Of a DNA stretch of 46,669 bases, positions 8,251 to 46,669 are shown piece after piece. Below the pieces are notes generated by a model. The model was not told where the DNA came from and made no database searches. It was given only the letters and a program-made list of their open reading frames with translations. Positions within the stretch are counted from its first letter, which is position 1, and each line of letters starts with the position of its first letter. The translations under genes and the position numbers were made by a program. Source of the stretch: a virus; IMG/VR virus record IMGVR_UViG_3300010236_000002, one strand, 5' to 3'.

Positions 8251-9441
8251 TTATTGTTGTTCGTAATCTTCATTATACTGCAGATACGTAGAACTTCCCT
8301 TGACAACCGTTCGGCAGAAGTTCATCTCCATAAGTGTAGCAGTTATTGCTGCGAGGGTGCGACTATCTGCGTCTAGGTATGTCATTCTCTGGAGCTCTGC
8401 TATACTTATCTCTTTCCTGCTCCCTATAATAGCCATCACTCGGTTCAGAGTATCGGCTTCTCTATTCTTCCCATATCCAGCAAACGTATGCGGCATGTTT
8501 CGCTCAGTTCGCTCTAGAATGTCCAGTGCTCGAAGGAAGTCCTCGTCTGTCAGAACCATATCGCCACAGCGACTAGCATTCATTATCATAGAGAGCTTCC
8601 ATAGATGCGTTGGCTTTCGCTCGAAGTATGGGGCGAAGCGATGATCGTCAAAGGGAGGCGGGCTATTGTCCGCTTTATAGTACCACTTTGTATAGACGTC
8701 GATAAAGCTATCGCTACATTGGAAGTTACCTTGCATCATCGAGATCTGTTCTAGGTCTATTAGCAACCGAGTCCCCAGTTCCTTTTCTTCTGGCGTTAGG
8801 AATGGCGCCAGCTCTGTGTGGTCTTTATTGCTTTCGTAGACAAAGATCATTCGACTTGTGAGGCCACCACCAATAGCATCAGGAGGCAGGGTTGAGTTGA
8901 GCAGTGCAGGTGTTGTTGCACCTATCAGGTTCACCCAGACTCCGGTTATGTCATCTGTTCCCATATTCTTCGTTCGATATTCCCAAGAGTCGCTACAGTC
9001 AAACCAGTCAGTCAAGTCCATCATCAGTTGTATGTTGTTGTATCCTAAGAATACAGTTAGTTCCTTGCTGAAGATCGTCAGCGAGGAGTGTAAGTACATC
9101 CTTCCACTCGCGTCTATGTGAGTATCTGAACTCGTTTTTAACTGATGTATCAAGGCCTCTCGGGTGATTGAGGAGCTCGATAGCTTTATCCCTAATTCTT
9201 TCAGGAAGCTTTCGCCGACAGACATAGCAGTCCCTTTTCGACACCGTCCTGGAGGACCAACAAGAACAATATACAGGTTCGGATATACGTTTATAGTGCC
9301 CCATTCGAGTTTAGTCTTCCTCCTCATACACGCAGCAATCACTGAGATAGCTGTCCATGTGTGATACATCCTCGGCGGCTCTGATCTCAAGGTGAATTCT
9401 AGATAACTCTCGAGCCAATCCTTGCACAGTCTCGTGCCCAT
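8251..9441 (-). CDS. P-loop NTPase, DUF3987/primase-helicase-like replication protein (396 aa)
   Basis: ATG 9441 has SD AAAGGAG upstream. P-loop-like LVGPPGRCRKGT, hydrophobic-acidic MIFVYE, and an N-terminal DWLESYLEF...YHTW segment typical of phage DUF3987-type proteins. The 5' 131 nt overlap the 3' end of the polymerase gene. Confidence 0.55.
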   Translation of the reverse strand: MGTRLCKDWLESYLEFTLRSEPPRMYHTWTAISVIAACMRRKTKLEWGTINVYPNLYIVLVGPPGRCRKGTAMSVGESFLKELGIKLSSSSITREALIHQLKTSSDTHIDASGRMYLHSSLTIFSKELTVFLGYNNIQLMMDLTDWFDCSDSWEYRTKNMGTDDITGVWVNLIGATTPALLNSTLPPDAIGGGLTSRMIFVYESNKDHTELAPFLTPEEKELGTRLLIDLEQISMMQGNFQCSDSFIDVYTKWYYKADNSPPPFDDHRFAPYFERKPTHLWKLSMIMNASRCGDMVLTDEDFLRALDILERTERNMPHTFAGYGKNREADTLNRVMAIIGSRKEISIAELQRMTYLDADSRTLAAITATLMEMNFCRTVVKGSSTYLQYNEDYEQQ

Positions 9442-31814: not shown

Positions 31815-34800
31815 GTGGCACTAAATCTTGACCCAGGACAAACAGGCGGAGGGAATGTGACGAGCATAGGGAGCGTGGAGTATCACTATCCACGAGGCCT
31901 AGACCTTCGTCCAAGTGGGCCTATACATGCCAAGCTTCTTGCTCGACTCAACCAGCGTATTATGGAGAGCTCAAATGAAATTAGCAAGAGACATAGCAGC
32001 TGGAAGAAGATAGACCGTACTCTTACGGCGTATATCCCGCTGGATGATGCGGAGAAGAAGGTACAAGATAGAGATGAGAGGAAGCCAGTATCTATTGTCA
32101 TTCCCTATAGCTTCGCTACTCTGGAGACTTTGCTTACTTACTTCTCTGCTGCCTTTCTTGAGTATCCTATTTTTAAGTATAGTGGCCACGGCCCCGAGGA
32201 TCGGGTCGGTGCGATACTGTTGGAGAAGGTTATCGAGATGCAGTCGAGAAGAGCTAAAATGGCTCTTGCTCTGCATACTGCTTTCCGAGACGGCTGGGCT
32301 TATGGACTGGGTGCAGTCGCTCCTTATTGGGATAAAGTATGGGGGAAGAAGACTGTTGTGGAAGATGCGACGTTCTTCTCTGCGCTCTTTGCTAAAATGA
32401 TGAGTAGTGGACAGAAGAGGGTCACTAAGGATGTAGTGCTCTACGAAGGGAACTATCTGAGAAACATTGATCCTTATTGCATCCTGCCAGACCCAAACGT
32501 GCCTATACATGAAGTGCAGAAGGGCGAGAGCTTTGGTTGGATTGATACTAGTAACTATCTGGCTATTCTAAGCGAAGAGCAGAGCGACCCACAGAACTGC
32601 TTCAATGCAAGATATCTCGCAGGCTATCGTGGTGCTAGTGGGAACAGTATCTATAACAAGGCGAAGAGTAGTAGTGGCCGTGAAGAACGCTTTGGTGTAG
32701 GCACACAGAGCGCGGCTAGCTCTACAAGTCCGATAGATAAGGTCTATCTCTACGTAAACCTAATTCCGAAGGATTGGGGCCTTGGGTCGCAGGAGTATCC
32801 GGAGAAGTGGCTCTTCTGTGTGGCAGCAGACAAAATCATCTTGCAGGCTCGGCCTCTTGGCCTGAACCACGGAATGTTTCCTGTAGCTACATGCAGCCCG
32901 GACTATGATGGCTATAGCGTGAGCCCAGTCTCTAGACTTGAGCTTATAGGCGGACTCCAGACGACTCTCGATTGGCTCGTAAACTGCTATGATGACCAGA
33001 CTGAGGTACTTACAGATAGAGGCTGGGTCTTGCTATCAGAAACTATAGATAGTGACCGAGTAGCTACTGTAGACCCTGTGACTAGAGGCTTCTGGTTTGA
33101 ACAGCCTAAACAATGGTTCGAGTATGACTACGATGGCTGGATGCTTAACTTTAAGTCTTCCAGAATGGATATATGCGTAACTCCACACCATAACATGTTT
33201 GCTCGAAGAAGATATAAAGGTAGCTGGGATTTTATTCCTGCTATTAACTTAGCTTTGGATGCTAAGAGTGAGTATAAAACGATAGGAAACCTTAACTGGA
33301 ATGGCGTTGAGCCTAACGCAGTTGAGTTCGCTGCAGAGCAACCTAAGAGAGATAGGGGACACGAAGTTAAGTACAAAAAGGCTAGAATAGAGCCTTTAGT
33401 TTTAGCTGGCTTCCTAGGCTGGTTTTTGTCTGAGGGTTCTATTTCTAAAGGTAAAGTTAGTGGCTCATATGCTATTTCTATCAAACAGGCTAAGAGAGAA
33501 AACTATGCAGATATAGATGGAATTATGTCTGCGATGCCCTTTCACGTAACCAAAACTTGGGATGATAAGAAAGATGCCACTCAGTGGACTATTACAGATA
33601 AGCGTCTATACATGTGGCTGAAGGATAATTGTTATAGTAGCGAAGGCACTACAAGTGAATTTAAAAAAGTACCTTTCTTTGTGAAGGCTTGGGATACTTA
33701 TTATCTCGAGCTTCTGTTTGAACGCGCTATCTTAGGTGATGGGTACTGGATAAAAGGTAGAGACAACTTAGCACAGTATGGATCCAAAAGTAAGCAGTTA
33801 GTAGATGACTTACAGGAGGTAGCCCTTAGACTAGGCTACTTTAGTCATACTAAGCTGTCTACTACACCTGCTGGGTTGCCTTTCTACGTACTAAACATTA
33901 GTACCAGCGAAACTAATCCTACAATAACTACTAGAAACTGTTATAAAACGCAGTATAAAGGAAAGGTTTACTGTTTTGAAAATTCTACTCATCTGACGGT
34001 GACTCGACGTAATGGAAAGGTGGCCATCCAAGGCCAGTCCCACATACAGAATGTGCGGAAGTCTATCAACGACATGCTCGTGGTTGATCCTAGCCTCGTA
34101 AACATAAACGACTTGCTCGACCCTGCACCTGGAAAGCTGATTCGTATGCGTAGGGCAGCATGGGGAAGGGGAGTGCAAAATGCTGTATCTCAGCTTGCTG
34201 TTAATGACATTACTCGTAGCCATATCCAGGACAGTGCCTACATCACGGAGCTTATTAAGACGTGTTCTGGTAGTGTTGATAGTGTCATGGGTCTTGCACG
34301 TACTGGTTCTGAGCGAGTGTCTGCAGACGAAAGTAGAGGAACAAGGATGGCTGCTCTTTCTCGTCTAACGAAGGCTGCGAAGGTTGTCTCACTCCAGATG
34401 ATGCAGGATCTTAGCTACATGCTTGCAAGCCATACGCAGCAGTTGATGACGAGACAAGTCTACGTGGAGGCTACAGGGCGATGGGAAGAAGAACTTCGTT
34501 CACAGTATCCTGATCAGAGTAGGATAAACGTAGACCCATTGAAGCTTTCGATAGACTACGATATTGTTGAGGGCGATGGAAGTTTACCAACGGGCGAGAA
34601 TGCAGATGTGATGACTACGCTCTTCCAGAGTATCGTCTCTCAACCTATGCTCTCACAACAGTTCGATATTGTGAGGATCTTCCAGCGCATCTGTATGATG
34701 ATGGGAGTCAAGGACGTGAATGAGTTTAAGCTTCGCCAGCAGCAAGGGACACTACCGAATGCTGCGGCTATCACGATGCCAGACCAGGTGGTGGAAAGTG

Positions 34801-34835
34801 AAGCGCAGAAAGGGAACTTGGTACCGATAGAATGA
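31815..34835 (+). CDS. Portal protein interrupted by an intein (1006 aa; 655 aa after excision)
   Basis: Lies directly after terL and before the scaffold and capsid genes. Extein size is typical of portals. The intein is defined separately. Confidence 0.75.
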   Translation: MALNLDPGQTGGGNVTSIGSVEYHYPRGLDLRPSGPIHAKLLARLNQRIMESSNEISKRHSSWKKIDRTLTAYIPLDDAEKKVQDRDERKPVSIVIPYSFATLETLLTYFSAAFLEYPIFKYSGHGPEDRVGAILLEKVIEMQSRRAKMALALHTAFRDGWAYGLGAVAPYWDKVWGKKTVVEDATFFSALFAKMMSSGQKRVTKDVVLYEGNYLRNIDPYCILPDPNVPIHEVQKGESFGWIDTSNYLAILSEEQSDPQNCFNARYLAGYRGASGNSIYNKAKSSSGREERFGVGTQSAASSTSPIDKVYLYVNLIPKDWGLGSQEYPEKWLFCVAADKIILQARPLGLNHGMFPVATCSPDYDGYSVSPVSRLELIGGLQTTLDWLVNCYDDQTEVLTDRGWVLLSETIDSDRVATVDPVTRGFWFEQPKQWFEYDYDGWMLNFKSSRMDICVTPHHNMFARRRYKGSWDFIPAINLALDAKSEYKTIGNLNWNGVEPNAVEFAAEQPKRDRGHEVKYKKARIEPLVLAGFLGWFLSEGSISKGKVSGSYAISIKQAKRENYADIDGIMSAMPFHVTKTWDDKKDATQWTITDKRLYMWLKDNCYSSEGTTSEFKKVPFFVKAWDTYYLELLFERAILGDGYWIKGRDNLAQYGSKSKQLVDDLQEVALRLGYFSHTKLSTTPAGLPFYVLNISTSETNPTITTRNCYKTQYKGKVYCFENSTHLTVTRRNGKVAIQGQSHIQNVRKSINDMLVVDPSLVNINDLLDPAPGKLIRMRRAAWGRGVQNAVSQLAVNDITRSHIQDSAYITELIKTCSGSVDSVMGLARTGSERVSADESRGTRMAALSRLTKAAKVVSLQMMQDLSYMLASHTQQLMTRQVYVEATGRWEEELRSQYPDQSRINVDPLKLSIDYDIVEGDGSLPTGENADVMTTLFQSIVSQPMLSQQFDIVRIFQRICMMMGVKDVNEFKLRQQQGTLPNAAAITMPDQVVESEAQKGNLVPIE
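32985..34037 (+). mobile_element. Intein (351 aa, Cys1 ... Gly-Gln / Ser+1) with LAGLIDADG homing endonuclease in the portal gene
   Basis: The TGC Cys codon is at 32985-32987 (DWLVN|CYDDQTEVLTDRGW). Block B is VTPHHN; LAGLIDADG-type motifs are LAGFLGWFLSEGS and LLFERAILGDGY. The C-terminus is KVAIQGQ|SHIQN, with the Gln codon at 34035-34037. It aligns without gaps to the last 28 aa of the polymerase intein. Low GC. Confidence 0.8.
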
Positions 34836-37741: not shown

Positions 37742-37893
37742 ATGTTTGGAATGAGAGGAACCGGAGATTGGGTCACCGATCAGAGGCCGAAGAATTTTAG
37801 GGAAACGATGCTTTTTCTGTACCCCAACGGACAGCTTCCGCTGACCGCTATGATGAGTAAGATGAAGAACGAGGCTGTAGATGATCCTGAGTT
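37742..37893 (+). CDS. Major capsid protein, exon 1
   Basis: MFGMRGTGDWVTDQRPKNFRETMLFLYPNGQLPLTAMMSKMKNEAVDDPEF... ends at an in-frame TAG only 8 nt past the proposed splice site. The reading frame continues at 38787. Confidence 0.7.
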
Positions 37894-38786
37894 TAGGTTC
37901 TAGGTCCACCTAGATATTGGACTCCTTCCGGCGAAATCCGGATGCAAAATGGCAGAAATTGCTGGAACATCCTAAAGCCTTCTTGACCAAAGCGTGAAAC
38001 TAAGAAAGGATAGTACAATGGACGATCAGCAGGGAAACTTACTAAATGTGATGGATAAGTATTTTGATGTTATGGCCTATTCTATAGGCGCACTTACAGG
38101 AGATGGGCACACTAGAAACTATGTTGTACAAAGAGACGGCGGTAAAGGTTTTCAAGTTACTTACCCTGTCACGATTAGCAACATGGATATGGATTGTGTA
38201 GGTAGAGTTTGCTGGGAGATCAATAGCCTCTTTGATAAGGCATACGACATTGTACCTTATAACAACGTAAATGGTACGCAGATGTTCAGGCTAGCGATCA
38301 ACAACTCTATCATTAACCAGTTCTTCGCATACTTTATTGGAGAGAAACAGTTTGTAGCAGACGAAGTATTTAGAGCGAGTAAGCAGGCAAAGTTAGATTA
38401 TCTCGCTGGACTGTTTGACACCGATGGGTATGTAGCGGAGATAAAGCATCCGCAATCTAAGTATGGCTACTCCTGGAGAGTTGGTTTTGCGTCTAGGCAT
38501 AGAACTTTTGTAGAAGATGTAACTAGGCTAATGCAGAAACTTGGGATTAAAGTTGGCAGTATATACTCTCAAGTATCTGGTCATGGGACAGTGATGTTTG
38601 TTATAAAGCCAAATATCAGGTCCTTTATCGAAGCTGGTTGCTACTTCAACATAAAGCGAAAGAATGATAGACTTAAACATTACATGAGTGCAATGAAATA
38701 GTAAGACCTTCAGAGACTATAATGCCAAGACCTTGACTAAGGTTTAAGATATAGTCCGGCGTTAGTTGAAAGGCTAACGATAGAAG
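37894..38786 (+). mobile_element. Group I intron (893 nt in the best model) carrying a LAGLIDADG endonuclease ORF, inserted in the major capsid gene
   Basis: P1: exon/intron TTTAGGT (37892-37898) pairs with ACCTAGA (37908-37914), with a U37893-G37913 wobble at the 5' splice site. A J8/7-P7-like TAAGATATAGTCCGG lies at 38745-38759, with complementary CCGGA at 37936-37940. The intron ends in G38786. Joining gives ...DDPEF|NWWTKNLPTQR in frame (433 aa). Boundaries are +/- a few nt. Confidence 0.75.
38018..38701 (+). CDS. LAGLIDADG homing endonuclease (227 aa), intron-encoded
   Basis: Two LAGLIDADG motifs (YSIGALTGDGH and YLAGLFDTDGY). ATG 38018 follows GAAAGGA. Low GC. Confidence 0.85.
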   Translation: MDDQQGNLLNVMDKYFDVMAYSIGALTGDGHTRNYVVQRDGGKGFQVTYPVTISNMDMDCVGRVCWEINSLFDKAYDIVPYNNVNGTQMFRLAINNSIINQFFAYFIGEKQFVADEVFRASKQAKLDYLAGLFDTDGYVAEIKHPQSKYGYSWRVGFASRHRTFVEDVTRLMQKLGIKVGSIYSQVSGHGTVMFVIKPNIRSFIEAGCYFNIKRKNDRLKHYMSAMK

Positions 38787-39936
38787 CAATTGGTGGACAA
38801 AGAACCTGCCGACTCAGAGGGCTACGATCACTGGCGTCTATACCGACGCTGCTATGAACGTGGCATATACTAGCGGTGGAGTTGCAGGTAGCGTGCTGTA
38901 CTGCAAGATGGGATCTGCCGATATCGTGCACTTCCGCGCTGGCCATCAGGTTCTCCTGCGGGATGCCAGTGACTTCACGGTTGATGTGAATGCGAAGGTT
39001 ATTGCGATCTCTAACAACGGGACGTCGAGCTTCATTCAGGTGAAGCTACTGGAAGCTGACGATAATAGCGCACACGGCCACGATCTGAGCGATGCAGATA
39101 CTGCGATTATCATCGGTAACATCAACGCTGAAGGTGCAACGATGCCTTCGGCTATCTCCTATGATCCTGTGAAGCTGTATAACTACACCCAGATCTTCCG
39201 CACCCCGTTGAGCATCACCAGAACAGCGAGGAAGACCAAGCTTCGCACGGGTGATGCCTATAACGAAATGAAGCGGGAAGCCCTGGAACTCCACGGGATC
39301 GAGATGGAGAAGGCCTTCCTTTTCGGTGTGAAGACGGAGAACACTGGCGACAACGGAAAGCCTGAGAGAACCACGGAAGGCCTTATCACCTGCATTCGTG
39401 CAAACAATGCTACGAATGGTGTAGATGATTTCTCCTTGTCCAGCACCTACAGTGGTAAGGGATGGACTGAAGATGGTGGTGGTGAAGACTGGCTTGACAC
39501 CGTTCTTATGAACCTGTTTATGTATGGTAGGGACACCAAGTTGGCCTTCTGTGGCAACGGTGCTCTGCTGGGTATCAACAAGCTGGCTAAAGCTGGTAGC
39601 CATTTCAACATCACGCCTACCACGATCGGCTATGGCATCAAGGTCATGGAGTGGATCACGCCCTATGGAACGCTGATGCTGAAGACGCATCCGCTGTTCA
39701 ACTATGAAACCACGCTTCGTTACTCGATGCTCTGCTTCGAGCCTGAGAATCTCTCCTATCGCTACATCGACGATACGTCGTTCTATGGCGAGGGAGGGAA
39801 GACTGCTGCTAGTGGAACGAACGCTGGACGGAAGGACGGAACGGATGAGGAGTATCTCACCGAAGCCGGTCTTGAGTATCATCATCCCTACACCGCAGCT
39901 TTCCTGAATGGTGTTGGTGTAGATAACGCTGTATAG
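38787..39936 (+). CDS. Major capsid protein, exon 2
   Basis: The frame is open from 38770 and there is no SD before the first ATG (38854). It continues the exon 1 sequence. The spliced product is 433 aa, is followed by a strong terminator, and lies in the head module. Confidence 0.7.
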
Positions 39937-46545: not shown

Positions 46546-46669
46546 ATGGGTGGTGGTGGAAAAGGCGGTGGAGGCGGAGGCGGTGGAGATACCACAACTA
46601 CATTAAGATATGCTCCTTATCTCGAGGGGCATCATCATCATTTGCTTGATATTGCTCGGGGAAACTATC
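46546..46669 (+). CDS. 5' part of the junction-spanning Gly-rich gene (continues at nt 1-866)
   Basis: ATG 46546 lies 2 nt after stop 46543 and reads MGGGGKGGGGGGGGDTTTTLRYAPYLEGHHHHLLDIARGNY. It is in phase with the frame that ends at 866. Confidence 0.6.
   Translation, partial: MGGGGKGGGGGGGGDTTTTLRYAPYLEGHHHHLLDIARGNY
46571..46669. repeat. Terminal overlap, second copy (identical to nt 1-99)
   Basis: Direct comparison shows identity. Confidence 0.95.

Follow-up and report, generated by a model that had tools for sequence, protein, structure and literature searches.

A capsid gene in two pieces

How does a phage make its major capsid protein if the frame that begins it runs into a stop after 53 codons and the remainder lies in a second frame further downstream? 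This question is raised by a 46,669-nt stretch of virus DNA (IMG/VR record IMGVR_UViG_3300010236_000002; the window), where the ORF from ATG 37742 (MFGMRGTGDW...DDPEFRF) ends at TAG 37901-37903 and the frame running to 39936 is open from 38770, with a TGA (38767-38769) just before. The original prediction that one capsid gene is split here by a group I intron with a LAGLIDADG endonuclease gene is borne out by gap-free alignment of the spliced product, by helix covariation (25 aligned introns of a 30-member family), by guide sequences that co-vary with their exons and by a confident model of the endonuclease. We hold it very likely that a single major capsid gene (433 aa) is interrupted by a mobile group I intron with an endonuclease gene, laid out as follows.

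37742..37893, plus strand: capsid exon 1 (50 codons plus 2 nt, 3' end ...GAG UU), matching residues 1-51 of uninterrupted 431-437-aa homologues
37894..38786, plus strand: group I intron (893 nt, GC 0.41)
37901..37903, plus strand: UAG stop in the exon 1 frame, beginning 7 nt past the 5' splice site
38787..39936, plus strand: capsid exon 2 (1 nt, 382 codons, stop codon)

Joining U37893 to C38787, as had been proposed, yields 1302 nt or 433 aa, and this product aligns with uninterrupted capsid homologues without a gap through the junction DDPEF-NWWTK. Such homologues are many (431-437 aa, at most 90% identical to the spliced protein) and include P0001 (90% identity) and P0002 (87%, same junction peptide). 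The spliced protein matches the SU10_MCP profile (Pfam PF17236/DUF5309) with 119.7 bits, above the cut-off of 24.1, over profile positions 14-291 of 292, while exon 2 alone covers 44-291. Among isolates, Desulfofustis phage LS06-2018-MD01 comes closest, with a 'major head protein' sharing 50.8% identity with the spliced capsid. Judged by its sequence, the gene is one for an SU10/DUF5309-type major capsid protein of 433 aa, interrupted in Phe codon 51. Its ligated exon junction is predicted to read GATCCTGAGTTCAATTGGTGGACA and the peptide spanning it NEAVDDPEFNWWTK; across the junction, the intron-less capsid allele of a relative (L011) reads GATCCAGAGTTCAACTGGTGGACGAAG.

Gene callers return three separate ORFs in the window and in all relatives, namely a 53-aa and a 360-aa capsid fragment plus an unrelated ORF, and ATG 38854 could indeed start the 360-aa product. 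This would fit a free-standing endonuclease gene that has split the capsid into two separately translated pieces, which assemble without any RNA splicing; in Aeromonas phage Aeh1, nrdA is split by an endonuclease gene. However, without a start codon at the junction residues 52-73, including the conserved WWTK..PTQ, would be lost, and a free-standing gene has no need of flanks that form a covarying ribozyme core or of a guide that tracks the exons (see below). Hence, we give two separately translated pieces next to no weight. Under an interrupted capsid gene, as we prefer it, and since no further capsid gene copy was seen beside the split one, we infer on sound grounds that virion production would need splicing of the capsid mRNA. 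The most highly expressed late protein of the phage would then hinge on efficient RNA splicing.

Splice sites and guide sequence

Both exon ends can pair with one contiguous guide located shortly after the 5' splice site.

37889..37893, plus strand: P1 5' strand, exon gaguu; U37893 is the U of the U·G wobble at the 5' splice site
37899..37914, plus strand: hairpin within the P1 loop, UCUAGG-UCCA-CCUAGA (arms 37899-37904 and 37909-37914), with compensatory changes in relatives
37916..37924, plus strand: internal guide sequence AUUG·GACUC, co-varying with exon sequence across the family
37916-37919, plus strand: AUUG, P10 half of the guide, pairing with exon 2 caau (38787-38790)
37920-37924, plus strand: GACUC, P1 half of the guide, pairing with exon 1; G37920 lies opposite U37893
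38786..38786, plus strand: terminal intron guanosine (omega-G), directly 5' of C38787

That the intron ends with G38786 and exon 2 resumes at C38787 was confirmed, the restored frame being collinear with homologues and free of indels. A contiguous guide that matches both exon ends and places U·G at the splice site occurs in nearly every family member checked (P1 4-6 bp, P10 mostly 3-8 bp) and tracks exon differences among relatives, e.g. aguau/GUACU vs aguuu/GAACU. In all 29 family members checked, an in-frame stop begins close to the 5' splice site, between 1 nt upstream and 37 nt downstream of it (the splice-site table excludes L017). For P1, TTTAGGT/ACCTAGA had been put forward. Its complementarity exists and the U37893 wobble at the splice site stands unchanged, but the helix itself is wrong: ACCUAGA is an arm of the covarying hairpin, which reads CUUAG/CUAAG, CUCGG/CCGAG or CUUCGG/CCGAAG in relatives around a conserved UCCA loop, and the true partner of the exon is GACUC (37920-37924). 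On comparative grounds UUUAGGU/ACCUAGA was rejected as P1, a G-to-A change in L003 breaking the helix.

A compact group I core

The core helices and conserved sequence elements map to the following positions.

37927..37942, plus strand: P2 hairpin UCCGG/CCGGA with GAAA in the loop; changes on both sides in 5/5 pairs
37950..37954, plus strand: P3 5' strand UGGCA, partner UGCCA (38723-38727) ~770 nt apart; 5/5 pairs compensatory, 97.6% paired
37956-37966, plus strand: P element AAUUGCNGG, a conserved group I sequence element
37959..37964, plus strand: P4 5' strand UUGCUG (P element AAAUUGCUGGAA), partner CAGCAG (38027-38032)
37970..38022, plus strand: P5, UCC (37970-37972) with GGA (38020-38022); ACC/GGU, CCG/CGG and CCC/GGG in relatives
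37978-37984 with 38002-38009, plus strand: P5a inside P5, CCUUCUU with AAGAAAGG; compensatory variants
38038..38044, plus strand: P6 5' strand CUUACUA, pairing with UAGUAAG (38699-38705)
38699..38705, plus strand: P6 3' strand UAGUAAG, pairing with CUUACUA (38038-38044)
38709..38727, plus strand: R element UUCAGAGACUAUAA, with P7 5' strand GACUAU (38715-38720), then P3 3' strand UGCCA (38723-38727)
38709-38722, plus strand: R element stretch CAGAGACUA, a conserved group I sequence element
38729..38744, plus strand: P8 hairpin GACCUU-GACU-AAGGUU; changes on both sides in 5/6 pairs
38746..38757, plus strand: S element AAGAUAUAGUCC, J8/7 plus P7 3' strand AUAGUC (38751-38756)
38760..38779, plus strand: P9 hairpin CGUUAGUU-GAAA-GGCUAACG; changes on both sides in 7/8 pairs

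Among 42 pairs tested in an alignment of 25 of the 30 family introns (A3), 93.6% of cells are paired compared to 33-45% with slid partners, and 25 of the 42 pairs have changed on both sides, a count reached in none of 500 shuffles. P4 and P7 are almost invariant in this alignment; in P4, five of six pairs do not vary at all and the sixth (U·G) is unpaired in 4/25 introns. P5a and P2 pair less well in the column-based count (74-80%), which is partly explained by shifts in alignment register. Since insertion sites and bulges vary between introns, this count is poor for P1, P5a and P6, for which helices were searched per sequence instead. These searches separate weakly from the shuffled control for P6 (7.5 vs 5.5 bp) and P5a (5.7 vs 4.7 bp), so that P5a rests mainly on its visible compensatory variants. 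Minimum-energy folding of the intron minus its ORF recovered P1, P2, P6, P7, P8 and P9 independently (z = -2.68).

As to the J8/7-P7 signature in the original prediction, AAGATATAGTCC is indeed found (38746-38757), but not with CCGGA as its match. The latter, thought to lie at 37936-37940, is actually at 37938-37942 and forms the 3' strand of P2 (with UCCGG 37927-37931), whereas P7 is formed by GACUAU (38715-38720) and AUAGUC (38751-38756). CCGGA/CCGG as P7 was rejected comparatively. Neither this nor the misassigned P1 partner affects the intron boundaries. The pattern CAGAGACTA-N-GATATAGTCC, which combines R and S, occurs once in the window and in 0/100 shuffles.

For P4, an early candidate (UUGCUGG with CCAAAGCG) was dropped as it cannot form in L001, and with it went the early P6 candidates AAGG/CCUU or, in L001, CCAAGGA/UUCUUGG. 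The segment CAAUGG..AUCAGCAG is kept across clades in different reading frames and yields canonical P5' and P4' followed by a covarying P6; in L001 the P4 partner nucleotides are preserved although the reading frame differs. We note that the 3' strands of P4 and P5 fall in the first endonuclease codons, where conservation could partly be protein-driven. P5 encloses a CCUAAAG...CAAUGG motif that looks like a tetraloop receptor. P7.1/P7.2, P2.1 and P5abc are absent from the intron structure. The T4 introns belong to subgroup IA2 with P7.1/P7.2, for which the present intron, with only 1-2 nt between P3' and P8, leaves no place. Based on sequence and comparison, the P1-P10 group I ribozyme core is complete, with R and S elements, U·G and omega-G all present. 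It comprises both conserved domains, P4-P5-P6 and P3-P7-P8-P9, and with them the P3/P7 pseudoknot.

At the gathering threshold, Rfam gave no match in the window; RF00028 is the sole match there even at relaxed E-values, but with 30.6 bits (local E = 1.3e-5, whole-window E = 4.8e-4) it stays below the curated 50, a score that is an operational annotation threshold rather than a structural defining feature. J8/7, P7, P8 and P9 align well, while the 5' half is misplaced inside the ORF because a ~650-nt P6 loop filled by the endonuclease gene defeats the model. Of 20 related loci, 13 show the same sub-threshold match at the corresponding position (relatives 27-39 bits).

Could the insertion be an intein or a group II intron instead? 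LAGLIDADG genes occur in inteins and some group II introns, and the endonuclease ORF is in frame with exon 1. Yet the stop at 37901, further stops before 38018 and the different frame of exon 2 exclude an intein. As for a group II intron, there is no reverse transcriptase gene, RF00028 is what Rfam finds and the R/S elements, U·G pair and omega-G are group I hallmarks. With reading frames and RNA core both against them, these two options are refuted, and what probability may be left to them is negligible.

That the group I intron is a decaying remnant or the assembly defective or chimeric, with the capsid being a pseudogene, might be argued from the sub-threshold Rfam score and the purely metagenomic data. 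Against this, JGI, ENA and Logan assemblies made independently of each other show the same architecture, the window copy retains all core positions that are invariant in the family, both ORFs are intact and the window ends with a 99-nt identical direct repeat, as expected of a complete genome. We consider decay or misassembly very improbable and take the intron as an intact element.

The endonuclease inside P6

Because its two strands pair around the ORF, P6, which covaries, carries the body of the endonuclease gene as its loop.

38018..38701, plus strand: LAGLIDADG homing endonuclease gene (227 aa); overlaps P5', P4' and P6 through its first codons, UAG stop within the P6 3' strand
38075-38110, plus strand: LAGLIDADG motif 1, AYSIGALTGDGH, residues 20-31
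38393-38431, plus strand: LAGLIDADG motif 2, LDYLAGLFDTDGY, residues 126-138

As predicted, this ORF is low in GC (0.40, exons 0.48-0.52) and has two LAGLIDADG motifs. Their G28, D29, G30 and D134, D136, G137 (GDG and DTDG) are invariant among 32 homologues, and the PF14528 profile is matched with 37.4 bits (cut-off 22.5). The protein gave no tblastn match at E < 1e-5 in 50,697 phage records and weak sequence matches in PDB (2dch, E = 1e-3; 1dq3, E = 0.014), so a fold search was needed. The structure model (pLDDT 93.2, pTM 0.89) has two alpha-beta-beta-alpha-beta-beta-alpha domains, and its top Foldseek matches are I-LtrWI, I-DmoI and PI-PfuI, with bI3 maturase also matched. According to this model, the 227-aa protein is a single-chain, two-domain LAGLIDADG endonuclease fold of the I-DmoI type.

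The match to bI3 maturase bears on whether splicing is autonomous. LAGLIDADG maturases exist, and P5', P4' and P6 of the core lie partly within the ORF, which couples translation and folding; hence, the protein may mainly or also act as a maturase, or a host chaperone may assist the ribozyme. In opposition to this, both motifs have kept their catalytic acidic residues in all 32 homologues and a near-identical intron in diverged exons (see below) points to an active endonuclease. Moreover, the core is compact and complete, and its GNRA-type loops L2 and L9 together with the receptor-like motif could stabilise it without protein. All in all, we regard a need for protein help as rather unlikely and favour a ribozyme that would act on its own.

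Intron family and mobility

Thirty distinct homologous introns were found at the same capsid site in metagenomic phages, with capsids down to ~50% identity. The intron of L004 is 99.8% identical over 893 nt to that of the window although the exons are only 76% identical, which from sequence comparison indicates recent horizontal transfer between the two phages. Among close relatives, alleles with the intron occur alongside alleles lacking it. The picture is one of a mobile element that spreads within a clade of uncultured phages whose genomes measure ~45 kb. Also, the family provides a well-resolved structure of a compact phage ribozyme that Rfam misses at threshold.

Insertion positions differ: counting downstream from the Pro codon, clade A introns sit at 5, 6 or 10 nt and those of a second clade at 4 nt. 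Clade A introns are ~75% identical between position classes, the same as within, a neighbour-joining tree intermingles the classes, and in each class the guide is re-matched to the new exon ends. Possibly, therefore, one intron lineage has changed its point of splicing repeatedly while staying inside 7 nt of the same capsid codons, a scenario to which we give slightly less than even chances. If this is true sliding or re-targeting rather than independent insertion, it would offer a natural series for the co-evolution of ribozyme guide, endonuclease target and host codons. This scenario also hints that the conserved DDPEF-NWWTK coding stretch may be a site contested by competing phages.

As for mechanism, a ribosome on exon 1 would halt at UAG 37901, which would keep the ribozyme core free of ribosomes, and the intron RNA may then fold into its P1-P10 architecture with the guide AUUGGACUC aligning both exon ends. 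Free guanosine would attack after U37893 (in U·G with G37920) and the freed exon 1 end after G38786, so that the ligated mRNA encodes ...DDPEF-NWWTK. In co-infection, the endonuclease most likely cleaves those capsid alleles of related phages that lack the intron, whereupon repair would copy the intron into them (homing).

Comparison with known systems

The intron is a further case of an element kind already known from phage capsid genes (LittleE, Tuc2009, crAss-like phages). In mycobacteriophage LittleE, RT-PCR and N-terminal sequencing of the protein over the junction have demonstrated that a capsid gene intron is spliced; 'unclear, most likely group I' is how its type is given by the authors (Pope et al. 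2013, PMC3706429). Like the window phage, LittleE has a ~0.8-kb intron in its major capsid gene, with U as the last exon and G as the last intron base, an intron endonuclease gene related to LAGLIDADG/I-CreI and a patchy distribution, the intron being present in only some members of its phage cluster. Differences are that the LittleE endonuclease gene has opposite orientation and encodes a 177-aa product whose C-terminus is HNH-related, whereas the window ORF is co-oriented, has two motifs and lies in P6; that the LittleE capsid is HK97-like with a delta domain rather than of the SU10/DUF5309 type; and that the ribozyme core is fully mapped here, unlike in LittleE. Lactococcal phage Tuc2009 is mentioned in the same paper as having an intron in its capsid gene (PMC3706429).

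Also derived from metagenomes are crAss-like phages, where endonuclease-bearing group I introns are described to split core genes including, in the Delta and Zeta groups, those for major capsid proteins (Yutin et al. 2021, PMC7886860). Lineage and capsid family differ from those of the window phage, and the introns were recognised via protein domains; as far as that account goes, it offers no ribozyme structure or mapping of splice sites on a par with ours. It also describes inteins in other core genes of crAss-like genomes (PMC7886860); as a separate observation, the window contains a probable portal intein. Split capsids like ours are mis-annotated in the same way in dozens of public contigs, and recognising the intron leads to the correct 433-aa protein.

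With regard to the enzyme, the predicted 227-aa fold resembles I-DmoI (PDB 2vs8 and others; Foldseek E ~1e-10, TM 0.58/0.70) and the PI-PfuI endonuclease domain (1dq3; TMq 0.68), yet at only 14-20% sequence identity and from a different setting, namely a phage group I intron as opposed to an archaeal rRNA intron (I-DmoI) or an intein (PI-PfuI). Judged against a review that lists GIY-YIG, HNH, PD-(D/E)xK and EDxHD as the common phage intron endonucleases (PMC3984707), LAGLIDADG is an unusual type. The td, nrdB and nrdD (sunY) introns of phage T4 with I-TevI, II and III share with our intron an endonuclease gene looped from a peripheral helix, a stop in frame shortly after the intron begins and an R/S consensus of the same type, and they home in mixed infections (partly PMC3984707). 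Their enzymes, however, are GIY-YIG or HNH and their host genes serve nucleotide metabolism. Finally, the gene for the endonuclease gp210 of PhiPA3, a jumbo phage unlike the window phage, likewise lies in an intron of an essential gene, and when a relative without that intron co-infects, the enzyme is reported to be able to damage the relative's allele (Birkholz et al. 2024, PMC11620839).

The capsid gene and its interruption

In the window, ATG 37742 opens an ORF (MFGMRGTGDW...DDPEFRF) that stops at TAG 37901-37903, the frame ending at 39936 is open from 38770 on, and a third ORF (38018-38701) lies between these two capsid frames. Joining U37893 to C38787 removes 893 nt with a GC content of 0.41 (vs 0.48 and 0.52 in the exons) and yields 1302 nt coding for 433 aa, which moves the start of the Pfam SU10_MCP match from profile position 44 (exon 2 alone) to position 14 (119.7 bits). 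Thousands of relatives of the spliced protein were returned, and the top 120 consist mostly of uninterrupted proteins (~430-444 aa, 98-100% query coverage). When exon 1 plus exon 2 was aligned to uninterrupted homologues, including P0001 (90% identity) and P0002 (87%), the junction DDPEF^NWWTKNLPTQR proved collinear and gap-free; the junction peptide of P0002 is identical, and intron-less DNA alleles read GAGTT^CAACTGGTGG (locus L011) and GAGTT^CCACTGGTGG (locus L009). Six capsid matches are truncated and begin just past the junction, and in their contigs, if long enough, a LAGLIDADG ORF sits between a short first exon and a truncated capsid ORF. Since homologues run uninterrupted across the junction and the truncated ones share this three-part layout, the two capsid ORFs are normally one gene, as the original prediction of a single 433-aa product had it, rather than two separate genes.

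Ribozyme core of the intron

Rfam gave no match at its gathering threshold; in relaxed mode, the predicted intron class did emerge, with RF00028 (group I intron) as the only credible match in the whole window, at 30.6 bits vs a cut-off of 50 (E 1.3e-5 for the region, 4.8e-4 for the window). This alignment is good in its 3' part (P8, J8/7, P9) and mis-placed within the ORF in its 5' part. Core elements were mapped by hand and then tested comparatively.

Core elements of the capsid-gene intron (window coordinates; lower case, exon; upper case, intron)
P1: gaguu 37889-37893 with GACUC 37920-37924, U37893·G37920 wobble
P10: caau 38787-38790 with AUUG 37916-37919
Hairpin inside the P1 loop: 37899-37914
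P2: 37927-37942
P3: UGGCA 37950-37954 with UGCCA 38723-38727
P4: UUGCUG 37959-37964 with CAGCAG 38027-38032
P5: UCC 37970-37972 with GGA 38020-38022
P5a: 37978-37984 with 38002-38009
P6: CUUACUA 38038-38044 with UAGUAAG 38699-38705
R element: 38709-38722
P7: GACUAU 38715-38720 with AUAGUC 38751-38756
P8: 38729-38744
S element: 38746-38757
P9: 38760-38779, GAAA loop
omega-G: 38786

One contiguous guide sequence, AUUGGACUC, serves both P1 and P10. The window has the R...S pattern once, and shuffling never reproduced it (0/100). The minimum-energy fold of the intron minus its ORF body (z-score -2.68) independently gives P2, P6, P7, P8 and P9 as well as P1 and the hairpin within its loop. The original prediction was right on the splice sites, S element, terminal G and endonuclease ORF, and two of its pairings had to be replaced. 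ACCUAGA, taken for the guide sequence, forms the 3' side of a hairpin that covaries around a conserved UCCA loop; the arms of this hairpin in relatives read CUUAG/CUAAG (L018), CUCGG/CCGAG (L025) and CUUCGG/CCGAAG (L027); a P1 formed with ACCUAGA is broken by a G-to-A change in L003. CCGGA, which the prediction paired with the S element, is found at 37938-37942 as the strand that closes P2; the S element pairs with the R element.

Covariation and splice-site choice in the intron family

The protein collection contains 52 homologues of the endonuclease, and metagenome and viral contigs searched with an alignment of such homologues supplied loci L012-L123. Where the endonuclease shares 32% identity or more with that of the window, the locus nearly always places it between capsid residues ~50 and 54, an insertion site shared in capsids down to ~50% identity. 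Thirty distinct homologous introns were found, and our hand-mapped structure was scored on 25 that had been aligned with MAFFT. There, 93.6% of cells are paired, vs 33-45% with the 3' partners slid by 1-3 columns, and 25/42 pairs have changed on both sides, a value reached by 0/500 shuffles. Compensatory changes affect 5/5 pairs of P3 (97.6% paired), whose strands are ~770 nt apart in the genome, 5/6 of P8 and 7/8 of P9, while P4 and P7 are nearly without variation, as expected of a catalytic core. P6 encloses the endonuclease gene, and its two strands covary in register (CUUACUA/UAGUAAG, CUUACAG/CUGUAAG, UUUACCU/AGGUAAA, UUUAUUGCA/UGCAAUGAA and others). The segment CAAUGG..AUCAGCAG (P5'/P4') is kept in both intron clades even though the endonuclease ORFs read different frames there, which points to constraint at the RNA level. 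As a comparative intron data set, this is unusually clean.

Splice sites were assigned by a U as last exon base, a G as last intron base and a capsid frame restored at the family's fixed spacing. Almost all introns have a contiguous guide that base-pairs with the two exon ends and sets a U·G at the splice site, and this guide changes along with exon differences.

Exon ends (5' exon; 3' exon) and guide sequences
aguau; uauugg: guide CCAAUA·GUACU
aguuu; uauugg: guide CCAAUA·GAACU
uucauu; ggugga: guide UCUACU·GGUGAA
gagu; uuaac: guide GUUAG·GCUC

A stop in frame with exon 1 is present in 29/29 introns checked; it begins anywhere from 1 nt before the 5' splice site to 37 nt past it. An interesting secondary pattern is that splice position varies: in L001-L056 the introns are inserted 4, 5, 6 or 10 nt past a Pro codon, four positions that all fall in one 7-nt part of the capsid sequence, each with its own matching guide. 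In a core-sequence tree, clade B (position 4) stands apart from clade A, in which positions 5, 6 and 10 are intermixed and identity between classes (~75%) equals that within them. Because this is a quick neighbour-joining tree on ~230 columns, we raise re-targeting or sliding of clade A introns as a hypothesis only.

Endonuclease and mobility

The endonuclease matches PF14528 (LAGLIDADG_3; 37.4 bits, cut-off 22.5), and the acidic residues of both LAGLIDADG motifs are invariant in 32 homologues. An AlphaFold model built from their alignment (pLDDT 93.2, pTM 0.89) resembles the single-chain two-domain LAGLIDADG enzymes I-LtrWI, I-DmoI (TM 0.58/0.70) and the PI-PfuI endonuclease domain (TMq 0.68), all three at E ~1e-10. 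No relatives of the endonuclease were found among 50,697 deposited phage genomes. As its start codon and likely ribosome-binding site (AAGGA, in the P5a 3' strand) fall within ribozyme helices, its translation is probably coupled to RNA folding.

The intron of locus L004 differs from the window's at 2/893 positions (99.8% identity), while identity in the capsid exons on either side is only 76%, with differences setting in again within ~6 nt of the intron's upstream end and ~13 nt of its downstream end. Alleles without the intron occur among the closest capsid relatives (87-90% protein identity). Recent horizontal transfer by homing, with co-conversion limited to short tracts, would be expected to leave this signature. 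We conclude that the capsid-gene group I intron is genuine and intact, and probably mobile.

Further group-I-like elements occur in some relatives. Sub-threshold RF00028 matches accompany a second interruption in L024 (472-1317), which separates capsid residue 28 from 29 and carries a 231-aa LAGLIDADG ORF of its own, and an element in L018 (417-1191) just upstream of capsid exon 1, where a 255-aa ORF has LAGLIDADG-like motifs as judged by eye; in L028 (1-68) a match is cut off at the 5' end. In L042, R- and S-like motifs (~1013-1060) and a distant LAGLIDADG relative adjoin a capsid fragment (residues ~151-271), suggesting a possible further intron site in this capsid family.

Genome context and known capsid-gene introns

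Positions 1-99 and 46571-46669 are an identical 99-nt direct repeat, so the window is probably a complete phage genome of ~46.6 kb (~46.57 kb), circularly assembled or terminally redundant. It has SU10-type portal and capsid genes, and its nearest isolate is Desulfofustis phage LS06-2018-MD01 (capsid 50.8% identical). The portal ORF (31815-34835, + strand) encodes 1006 aa, vs 652-656 aa in relatives; relative to the Desulfofustis phage portal, residues 391-741 (~32985-34037) are an in-frame insertion (...DWLVN^CYDDQ...AIQGQ^SHIQNVRK vs ...DWLYN^SHITNVRK) containing a LAGLIDADG_3 domain. With Cys1, Gln rather than the usual Asn at its C-terminus, and Ser at +1, this is probably an intein; its sequence is not significantly similar to that of the endonuclease in the capsid intron. 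A single ORF (9311-12721, - strand) encodes a 1136-aa replication protein with uracil-DNA glycosylase superfamily, 3'-5' exonuclease and family A DNA polymerase domains.

The capsid gene of the Desulfofustis phage is uninterrupted. That of the window is intron-split and adds to a kind already known from other phages. Group I introns have been described in capsid genes of lactococcal phage Tuc2009 and mycobacteriophage LittleE, the latter with an I-CreI-related endonuclease and experimentally shown splicing (PMC3706429), and also in those of crAss-like phages (PMC7886860). Since the usual phage intron endonucleases are, according to a review, of the GIY-YIG, HNH, PD-(D/E)xK and EDxHD types (PMC3984707), a LAGLIDADG enzyme in a phage intron is the less common case, albeit not a new one.
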